DNA of 51,074 bases, counting the filler, from Circinaria calcarea (taxonomy: Eukaryota), in NCBI GenBank assembly GCA_051942165.1. It is 3 parts of 3 records of this genome, joined end to end, with 100 filler letters (N's around TTAATTAATTAA, not from the genome) between each part and the next. Parts side by side here need not be neighbours in the genome. Positions count along the whole stretch, not along the records: positions 17,090 to 34,052 come from JAVECS010000295.1; 2 more parts are not named here. The stretch is one strand, 5' to 3'. Below, in pieces: positions 32,255-34,052 of the stretch. The number at the start of each line of letters is the position of its first letter. Position 1 is the stretch's first letter. Both the position numbers and the translations under genes were made by a program. Under the pieces are notes generated by a model. It searched no databases and was not told the DNA's origin. It saw nothing but the letters and a program-made list of their open reading frames with translations.

Positions 32255-33232
32255 TCACCAATCCAAAGCCTGATCCTTGCGGGCTTCCTTCTTGCCCTCT
32301 CTCGTCCAATCGTAAACCCCCCCTCTCACTTCAAAACTCTCCTCATCCCACAATACCCCTTCCAACGCCCTCTCCACCCCCACCTCCAGAATCGACCCCG
32401 TCGGTTCCCCGGTCCCCTTGTTCAAAAAGCGCATGTACTCGTCCAGGATCAGGTAGGAACTGCGCATCACCCGATTGGACTCGGGCACGAAGCATTCGAG
32501 GTGGGCATGGCGGTCGCAGAAGCGCTGGAACTCGGCGTCAGTAATGGCGAAGCGGGTGGCGTCGCGCTTGGTCGCCGAGGAATCGTTTTCGCCCGCGACG
32601 AGGAGCACCTGGAAGCATTTCCAACGGAAGGGCGCCACGTTGCGGATTGGGGCCGTCATGTCCTCGGCGACGTTGAGCCGGTTGACGACGGTGTTGACTT
32701 TGAACCGGATGCCGTGAGTGCGGCAGAGGGCGGCGAGGACCCGAAAGCGATCGAGGTGCGCTCCTGTGCCGCGGCCAATGGCGACGTTGGTGGCTTCGTC
32801 AAAGGAGTCGCACGACACGGCCATGATGTCGATGTACCTGCCAAAGTCGGCCAACTGGGCCTGGGTGACTTTACTGCCGTTGGTGACGACTGAGACCGAC
32901 TCGAGCCCGAGGTCGTCTTTGCAGTAGCGGGCTAGGGCGCCGAGGAATTTGGGGTACAGGAAGGGTTCGCCGCCGGCGAAGTTGATCTTCTTCATGCCGG
33001 CTTGCTGGAGGAGGGCGAGACCTCGCTTGGCTTGGGCCAGGGGGGCGATGTACGAGGTCGTTTCGGTGTGGAAGCAAAAGCCACAGGAGTAGTTGCATTT
33101 GCGGGTGAAGTGGTAGTTGACCGAGATGGGTATCTTGCCTTTCGGTTTCGGAGCGGGCGAACGTCTTCTTCTCCAGGAGAGGAAGGCGGTGACGAGTGCA
33201 GCAAGGCAGATGGAGAGGAGTGCCAAATACAT
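32255..33232 (-). CDS. RSAD2: Viperin/RSAD2-like radical SAM ddhNTP synthase, intronless
   Basis: ISVNYHFTRKCNYSCGFCFHT (CxxxCxxC), GMKKINFAGGEPFL, SVVTNGS, AVSCDSFDE, FKVNTVV, RWKCFQ, ESNRVMRSSYLILDEYMRFL, RGGVYDW and terminal LDW. Confidence 0.96.
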   Translation of the reverse strand: MYLALLSICLAALVTAFLSWRRRRSPAPKPKGKIPISVNYHFTRKCNYSCGFCFHTETTSYIAPLAQAKRGLALLQQAGMKKINFAGGEPFLYPKFLGALARYCKDDLGLESVSVVTNGSKVTQAQLADFGRYIDIMAVSCDSFDEATNVAIGRGTGAHLDRFRVLAALCRTHGIRFKVNTVVNRLNVAEDMTAPIRNVAPFRWKCFQVLLVAGENDSSATKRDATRFAITDAEFQRFCDRHAHLECFVPESNRVMRSSYLILDEYMRFLNKGTGEPTGSILEVGVERALEGVLWDEESFEVRGGVYDWTREGKKEARKDQALDW

Positions 33233-33789
33233 TTTTGAGTTGGGACTACAGTTTTAGATGCCGTATGGTATCAGTGTCTTTATGCTCAGAACATTCAACT
33301 TCGTATGGCAGATGAGAGTGGAGGCATACTCCCGCTTTAAATAGAAAAGTAGTATAACATGTATAGCATCGTTCTCGAAATCCGAAGAACGGAGGGCATA
33401 AAGGACAAGGCTAGGTTTGAGATGCGAAATAGCTTCGAATGGAATGGAGACAACTAAAAAAAGGGGAAGAAGATTGAAAAGATCCCCTCGTGCAGGTAGT
33501 AGAAGCGCTTGGGAGACTCCACGAGCAGTACATCGAAACGGAAGCTGGTGGAAAATACTTCTGATTCATATTCTGTATACTCGAACAATCTGGTAGGTTG
33601 CACAATACACTTGATACGTAGAACAGATTCACTTTCTTTCTTGTTCTCCGTGGTCTTAGACTTGTAGATATATCATAAAACGTCTTGCTATCCCACAATT
33701 ATTATTAGCTCTTCCCAAGACCTTATTGAGAAATAAGTTGAGCACATCCTTCCAATAGTCCGTACAATCCACCTCAAAGGGACTAAGAG

Positions 33790-34052
33790 ATGGATCGAAG
33801 ACCAGACTCGGCCAGGCCCGAACACCCTCAACCTGCCCGTTCATTCAAAATTCAGGACGCCGAGATAGTATTTGTTCTAGGTACCTATCCCCAGTAATGG
33901 ACTGAAAAGAATACTGACCATGGCGGTCCTGTAACAGGCGGGCCGGGCGTTGGCAAAGGAACACAGTGTAGCCGATTAGCCACGGATCTGGACCTGGTGC
34001 ACGTCTCGGTAGGCGACCTCCTGAGAGCATCAGCCAGCGACTCCCAGGACCC
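33790..34052 (+). CDS. UMP-CMP/adenylate kinase family NMP kinase (Ura6/CMPK1-like), 5' part, truncated by contig end
   Basis: Exon1 33790-33880 [31 protein letters not shown], intron 33881-33937 (GTACCT...TACTGAC...CAG), exon2 [37 protein letters not shown]. FVLGGPGxGKGTQC and HxSxGDLLR are adenylate-kinase family signatures. Confidence 0.9.

Follow-up and report, generated by a model that had tools for sequence, protein, structure and literature searches.

The locus described here raises the question of whether a fungal viperin gene and the nucleotide kinase gene lying head to head with it form a conserved functional pair, and what the kinase would contribute to such a pair. The locus belongs to Circinaria calcarea (GCA_051942165.1) and was studied within a stretch of DNA of 51,074 nucleotides, referred to below as the window. 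The window consists of three contigs, which are separated by artificial, nongenomic joiners at positions 16990-17089 and 34053-34152; the two joiners are identical (N44-TTAATTAATTAA-N44). The middle contig spans 17090-34052, and both genes lie at its right-hand end; the positions of their parts are given in Table 1.

Table 1. Features of the viperin-kinase locus, in positions of the window
Feature	Position	Strand	Description
Viperin CDS	32255..33232	-	Complete, 325 aa, single exon
Divergent intergenic region	33233..33789		557 bp between both ATGs; presumed shared bidirectional promoter
Kinase exon 1	33790..33880	+	30 codons plus first base of a Gly codon; beta-1 strand IVFVL at its end
Kinase intron	33881..33937	+	57 nt, GT..AG, directly before the P-loop
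Kinase exon 2, partial	33938..34052	+	P-loop and first part of the NMP-binding domain (VSVGDLLR); truncated where the contig ends
Contig joiner	34053..34152		N44-TTAATTAATTAA-N44, artificial

A complete viperin gene and the 5' end of a kinase gene

The minus-strand gene had been taken for a complete viperin starting at ATG 33232 in an initial reading of the DNA (here called the sequence-only reading). This was borne out, as the reading frame is uninterrupted down to the stop codon at 32255-32257. The protein carries the radical-SAM motif CxxxCxxC (C46/C50/C53) within the sequence CNYSCGFC, which starts at residue 46. It matched PF04055 (Radical_SAM) with 61 bits and the viperin family model NF038283 with 242.4 bits, above the cutoff of 180; its score against TIGR04278 was 380.8 bits, under the cutoff of 450 set for that model. 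Residues 31 to 320 could be aligned without gaps to the solved fungal viperin-like structures 6b4c, 7n7i and 9dgw (E value of about 5e-117), and mouse viperin (5vsl) was matched with an E value of 5e-102. At the N terminus, a hydrophobic helix is followed by RRRR. The C terminus, LDW, fits the tripeptide [LIM]-[DES]-[WF], reported to recruit the cytosolic Fe-S assembly machinery (10.1101/2023.05.19.541488), and the same ending was found in 17 of the 31 fungal viperins that we aligned. The nearest viperin in the databases (P0013) is 82% identical to that of the window; the nearest ones with a species name, at 63 to 66% identity, include those of the lichen-forming ascomycetes Lasallia and Varicellaria, as well as that of Elaphomyces. 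By all of these family hallmarks, the protein is a complete viperin, that is, a radical-SAM enzyme and a predicted ddhNTP synthase.

On the opposite strand, a divergent spliced gene with its ATG at 33790 had been proposed, 557 bp away from that of viperin, and our reading of the exons and the intron confirmed these coordinates. An in-frame TAA is found one codon upstream of the ATG. The intron, which contains a branch-like site (CTGAC), is in phase 1 and lies inside a Gly codon, in agreement with the earlier statement that it splits the P-loop, and the spliced product of 68 aa is as it had been written. The 38-aa piece encoded by exon 2 gave 39.1 bits against PF00406 (ADK; cutoff of 26.8) and an E value of 2e-10 against TIGR01359, the UMP-CMP kinase family; the score against the latter is far below the whole-protein cutoff because only 38 aa are present. 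The model for thymidylate kinases, PF02223, was absent among the Pfam matches of the fragment. A P-loop of the GxPGxGKGT type and the GDLLR motif are both present, and the positions of DGFPR and of the LID would lie beyond the end of the contig.

The kinase comprises only 68 codons because the contig terminates at position 34052. Since what follows is an artificial joiner, the gene runs off the contig end, and the DNA past position 34152 is not its continuation. The sequence-only reading had proposed recovering the rest of the gene; we looked for it on the contigs of the window by tblastn with eight relatives of the kinase, and none was found there.

These relatives, all longer than the fragment, were obtained by a word-index search with a 41-aa query from the window, which included four residues from the frame of the intron. 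The nearest of them, P0004, is identical to the window kinase at 92% over 38 residues and extends through LLDGFPR. Full-length relatives with a species name are from the lichen-forming fungi Letharia, Mycoblastus and Lobaria. When two relatives were compared with solved structures, the best match of both P0005 (101 bits) and the Letharia protein P0215 (137 bits) was yeast URA6 (1uky). In a search of a representative library with P0005, multidomain adenylate kinase repeat proteins filled the top of the list, and about 40 single-domain matches were usable. In the ESM Atlas, the cluster nearest to P0215 is labeled "Uridylate kinase" and is mostly from Ascomycota, which is uninformative on paralogy. 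The neighbor of viperin is thus the 5' end of a gene for a P-loop NMP kinase of the adenylate/UMP-CMP kinase family, as judged by its motifs and family models. This agrees with both the family assignment made earlier and the claim that the kinase is Ura6/CMPK1-like, unlike CMPK2 of the thymidylate kinase family, given that PF02223 was not matched and that the best solved matches of the relatives were URA6 and AK1.

Recurrence of the head-to-head arrangement

A survey of viperin neighborhoods had been suggested in the sequence-only reading, and the adjacency was found to recur. With a profile built from 31 fungal viperins, we collected 80 metagenome loci, all oriented with viperin on the plus strand, and the eight kinase fragments then served as tblastn queries to look for the kinase in them. 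It was present in 36 of the 50 loci that had at least 1000 nt of upstream DNA; the other 30 loci, whose upstream DNA was shorter than this, were left out of this count. In all 36 cases, the kinase was upstream of viperin and on the opposite strand, at a distance of 164 to 2959 nt from the viperin match. Downstream of viperin, where 47 loci had 1000 nt or more, no kinase was found in any of them, even though a similar amount of DNA was covered (225 kb versus 229 kb). After the viperin DNA was clustered at 95% identity, the kinase was present in 24 of 35 nonredundant loci and absent from 11. Among the loci with short upstream DNA, a motif scan of one (L055) revealed a P-loop cut by the edge of the locus. 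For the nearest relatives of the two window genes, the viperin P0013 and the kinase P0004, the longest contig has 9508 bases in both cases, a hint that the nearest relative has the two genes paired as well.

The intron placed before the P-loop is shared as well. Of 25 distinct locus sequences, 15 have a stop codon somewhere in the 25 codons that precede the P-loop in frame, so that they need an intron there. In 5 of the 25, the frame can be read without interruption through the beta-1 strand that precedes the P-loop. The intergenic regions were compared as well: among 25 of them, no promoter word was conserved above chance relative to shuffled controls, the top 7-mer being found in 11 regions (shuffle maximum, 11) and the top 8-mer in 6 (shuffle maximum, 7).

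The pairwise identities of neighboring viperins and kinases were correlated (Spearman coefficient of 0.48), and none of 2000 Mantel permutations gave a value as high. Such codivergence fits inheritance of the two genes as a pair, with the proviso that relatedness alone inflates a correlation of this kind.

The loci lacking the kinase were scanned for any other NMP kinase. The scan covered the 45 longer ones among 157 upstream ORFs with a length of 70 aa or more, and none was found in these 45. In two of these loci, the neighbors include another ORF related to nucleotide metabolism: L056 has one with a CYTH domain, and L035 has one that is deaminase-like.

Divergence of the linked kinases from canonical URA6

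We next consider what the linked kinases have kept and what they have changed. Among the 30 distinct ones, DGFPR is present in all and the P-loop Lys in 29; the NMP-site Arg of GDLLR is kept, and so are the arginines of the LID wherever this part could be aligned (26 of 30). Because these residues are retained, the linked kinases should be active enzymes. Several residues of the NMP domain, invariant among the canonical URA6 proteins, are replaced in them: A68 (by V), E75, R78, S81, Y83 and G84. They also have a median identity to one another of 33%, compared with 56% for their viperins.

These features bear on the role of the kinase. According to one explanation, the pair is functional and the kinase is not the supplier of substrate: it would rephosphorylate ddhUMP or ddhUDP, or it would have an altered base specificity and buffer the host pool. 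The remodeling of the NMP-base region, with the catalytic residues conserved, is in line with such a role, as is an evolution at about the pace expected of immune genes and faster than that of the viperins. The simplest analogy, however, is with CMPK2 feeding viperin (10.1101/2023.09.13.557418), and it favors substrate supply; we therefore regard a kinase that does not supply substrate as unlikely. A more specific proposal is that the linked kinase is a dedicated, fast-evolving immune paralogue, coinherited with viperin across filamentous ascomycetes, whose base site has been remodeled for a specialized job such as the selective supply of UMP or the rephosphorylation of ddh-nucleotides. We put this forward tentatively, as a possibility that may well prove wrong. 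If true, the two enzymes together would manufacture antiviral nucleotides, and an arms race against mycoviruses would have shaped the pair.

Another explanation is that the kinase is simply the housekeeping URA6 of the fungus, which adjoins viperin because of ancestral synteny and does not serve the viperin pathway in any dedicated way. One argument for this is that the relatives of the kinase have yeast URA6 as their best solved match. A set of canonical proteins was assembled for comparison, made up of proteins from Mucoromycota and Paramicrosporidium named uridylate or UMP-CMP kinase, a canonical-type basidiomycete protein, and further proteins of canonical type. Canonical fungal URA6 proteins are 49 to 62% identical to one another across phyla, so the linked kinases, at a median of 33%, are far more divergent, in addition to lacking the invariant NMP-domain residues listed above. 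The ascomycete member P0215 also resembles yeast URA6 less closely than does a basidiomycete canonical protein (137 bits versus 253 bits for P0286), and its score against URA6 barely exceeds that against AK1.

In a maximum likelihood tree of 48 sequences, eight canonical proteins formed a single clade (support of 99/94, present in 200 of 200 bootstrap trees). Before the tree was built, 15 rows had been removed (near-duplicates, two long branches and five likely nonfungal proteins). The canonical clade was composed of the proteins from Lichtheimia, Tulasnella and Paramicrosporidium together with five others, and no canonical URA6 of a filamentous ascomycete was part of it; a search for one with a canonical URA6 profile returned only two-domain proteins and proteins of Mucoromycota. 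The linked kinases fell outside this clade, and the window fragment, which contributes only about 39 aligned columns, was placed with P0004 among the linked kinases and the proteins from lichen fungi. A phylogeny of the kinase against housekeeping URA6 had been proposed as a check by the sequence-only reading. The position outside the canonical clade was recovered, but an approximately unbiased (AU) test did not reject a tree in which the window pair is joined as sister to canonical URA6 (p = 0.188; delta lnL of 17.8). Taken together, the sequence comparisons indirectly favor a dedicated paralogue over housekeeping URA6, and we consider it very unlikely that the kinase is the latter.

It could also be argued that fungi do not use the pair against viruses and that the ddh-nucleotide serves another purpose, for example, as a secondary metabolite or in signaling. 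The titles and abstracts of the literature on viperin with mycovirus revealed nothing resembling a test of a fungal viperin against a mycovirus, and the CYTH-domain and deaminase-like neighbors in loci lacking the kinase would suit such a purpose. Against it, fungal viperins expressed in Escherichia coli make ddhUTP, as antiviral viperins make their products (10.1101/2023.09.13.557418), and no biosynthetic-cluster gene adjoining the locus was seen in the ORF list of the window, in which the other neighboring genes are unannotated. This explanation is accordingly highly improbable. Equally hard to credit is the idea that the copy in this genome is a truncated or decayed remnant that caused the contig break: although the gene reaches the contig end after 68 codons and its remainder is absent from the window, these codons are intact, the splice structure is good, the close relative P0004 continues through DGFPR, and contig ends are common in draft assemblies.

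Proposed role of the pair and relation to known systems

The locus is probably a further instance of a conserved fungal pair made up of viperin and a divergent NMP kinase of the URA6/CMPK1 family, in which the kinase would supply substrate for the synthesis of antiviral ddhUTP. The 557-bp region would act as a bidirectional promoter that probably drives both genes. The kinase, presumably a dedicated paralogue distinct from the housekeeping URA6 of the cell, would convert UMP and CMP to the diphosphates and so raise the local level of UDP and CDP and, hence, of UTP and CTP. Viperin, as an ER-anchored radical-SAM enzyme, would then dehydrate UTP to its 3'-deoxy-3',4'-didehydro analogue, and perhaps CTP likewise, giving ddhUTP and possibly some ddhCTP. 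Finally, ddhUTP would act as a chain terminator of viral RNA synthesis and thereby restrict fungal RNA viruses.

We examined the substrate pocket of the window viperin with respect to the choice between UTP and CTP. Mouse Cys314 and Lys319 are reported to form the CTP pocket and Trichoderma virens Arg257 the UTP pocket, all of them in the beta-8 loop (10.1101/2023.09.13.557418). In the window viperin this loop reads NKGTGEPTG, compared with DRNGQQPSK in T. virens. It has no counterpart of mouse Cys314, and mouse Lys319 could not be mapped onto it because the loops differ in length. In the structure 9dfw, DRNGQQPS of the T. virens enzyme is replaced by the loop NCTGGRKDPS, in which the spacing between C and K is 5; from this spacing we infer that Arg257 corresponds to the R of FLDR, a position at which the window viperin has Lys272. 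Under an alternative numbering, Arg257 would be the R of PEPNR, which is identical in the two proteins (Arg254 in the window). The window loop, RFLNKGTGEPTGSIL, differs by one residue from that of the Aspergillus pseudonomiae viperin P0031, and an Aspergillus viperin is reported to make mainly ddhUTP (10.1101/2023.09.13.557418). A preference of the window viperin for UTP is thus plausible from the loop sequence, but it is not established, since Lys272 occupies the position to which we map Arg257.

The pairing itself has already been described. Shomar et al. (bioRxiv 2023, 10.1101/2023.09.13.557418) found 484 kinases within three genes of viperins and report that the kinases associated with fungal viperins are of the CMPK1 type and of distinct origin, a case of "convergent evolution," with a linkage that coincides with the preference of fungal viperins for UTP. 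The same source reports that viperins of Trichoderma and Aspergillus produce ddhUTP, the fungal enzymes having been expressed in E. coli. The proposal made in the sequence-only reading, that fungi independently combined viperin with a kinase of a different family in a way that fits a preference for UTP, is supported by our results, yet it is found almost verbatim in this preprint. In our literature searches, the preprint was the only work that brings together viperin, CMPK1 and fungi, and no publication joining viperin with "uridylate kinase" was found. Culbertson and Levin (PMC10732462) do not mention kinases. The window is therefore a truncated further example of a known pairing and adds little to it. 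In agreement with the published view, the locus supports repeated recruitment of nucleotide kinases by viperin as linked partners, the fungal kinase belonging to a family other than that of animals, in step with the shift from CTP to UTP. It also fits a general model in which conserved immune modules keep the enzyme that supplies their substrate genetically linked.

When compared with the system of Shomar et al. (10.1101/2023.09.13.557418), the pair found here shows no essential difference. In both, an NMP kinase that is CMPK1/URA6-like and unlike CMPK2 lies within a few genes of viperin, and the frequency of the kinase in our loci (72%) is close to the 70% given there for fungal and metazoan viperins together. 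What the present analysis adds is modest: the strict head-to-head orientation, the shared intron before the P-loop, the fast evolution of the linked kinases, their remodeled NMP region and their position outside canonical URA6.

The vertebrate RSAD2-CMPK2 pair is similar in that viperin adjoins a pyrimidine nucleotide kinase thought to supply its NTP substrate (10.1101/2023.09.13.557418). CMPK2, however, belongs to a thymidylate kinase-like branch, whereas the window kinase belongs to PF00406, and the characterized fungal viperins make mainly ddhUTP, in contrast to ddhCTP in the vertebrate system (10.1101/2023.09.13.557418). For viperin itself, the closest comparison is with the viperin-like enzyme of T. 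virens (7n7i, 6b4c and 9dgw), which shares a gapless alignment of 290 residues, the radical-SAM motif and the C-terminal region with the window protein and differs from it in the beta-8 loop, including the UTP-coordinating Arg257 if our mapping to Lys272 holds. For the kinase, the corresponding reference is yeast URA6 (1uky/1ukz), with which the relatives of the window kinase have the P-loop, GDLLR, DGFPR and the LID arginines in common; it differs from them in its lower score against a full-length relative than against a basidiomycete canonical protein and in the canonical NMP-domain residues that the linked kinases have replaced.

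Loop and kinase types in metagenome viperin loci

The viperin loci recovered from metagenomes were set with viperin on the plus strand, and their kinases were sought by tblastn. Among the kinase-bearing loci (within L001-L076), GGPG.GKGTQC kinases accompanied viperin loops of the FLNKG kind, and the kinases next to FLDR.G loops were of the GAPGSGKGTLC type. The type of the viperin beta-8 substrate-pocket loop and the type of kinase thus appear to be matched in the kinase-bearing loci, although the search pattern recognised the loop in no more than roughly half of them.

URA6-like kinases of Chaenotheca gracillima

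Two proteins, P0011 and P0266, both from Chaenotheca gracillima, were placed beside the canonical URA6 clade in the kinase tree. Their P-loop region closely resembles that of the window kinase, but their NMP domain, with ..GS.FADFIN.., is of another type. The two proteins may represent a third kind of URA6-like kinase.

Neighbourhoods of the viperin genes

The window is an end-to-end array of three unrelated contigs split by two artificial joiners, and therefore gene neighbourhoods must not be read across either of them. A long stop-to-stop ORF is convergent with the window viperin, and 233 bp separate its end from the stop codon of that gene; the ORF is Ser/Thr/Pro-rich, with one hydrophobic stretch.

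Features of the window and of two metagenome viperin loci
Feature	Position	Strand	Details
Artificial joiner	window 16990-17089		N44-TTAATTAATTAA-N44
Artificial joiner	window 34053-34152		N44-TTAATTAATTAA-N44, identical to the first
Stop-to-stop ORF	window 29016-32021	plus	1001 aa
Cytidine/dCMP deaminase-like ORF	L035:1-450	plus	PF00383, E 7e-7
CYTH (triphosphate tunnel) domain ORF	L056:2929-3828	minus	E 2.5e-13

No kinase was found in the viperin loci L035 and L056. The deaminase-like ORF of L035, located at the contig edge upstream of viperin (at 1189), is a further pyrimidine-metabolism neighbour of a viperin. At L056, the CYTH-domain ORF lies directly upstream of viperin (at 3945) in divergent orientation, in the kinase's stead. 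Passages of a preprint report viperin fusions with predicted triphosphatase or cyclase domains (Shomar et al., bioRxiv 2023, 10.1101/2023.09.13.557418).
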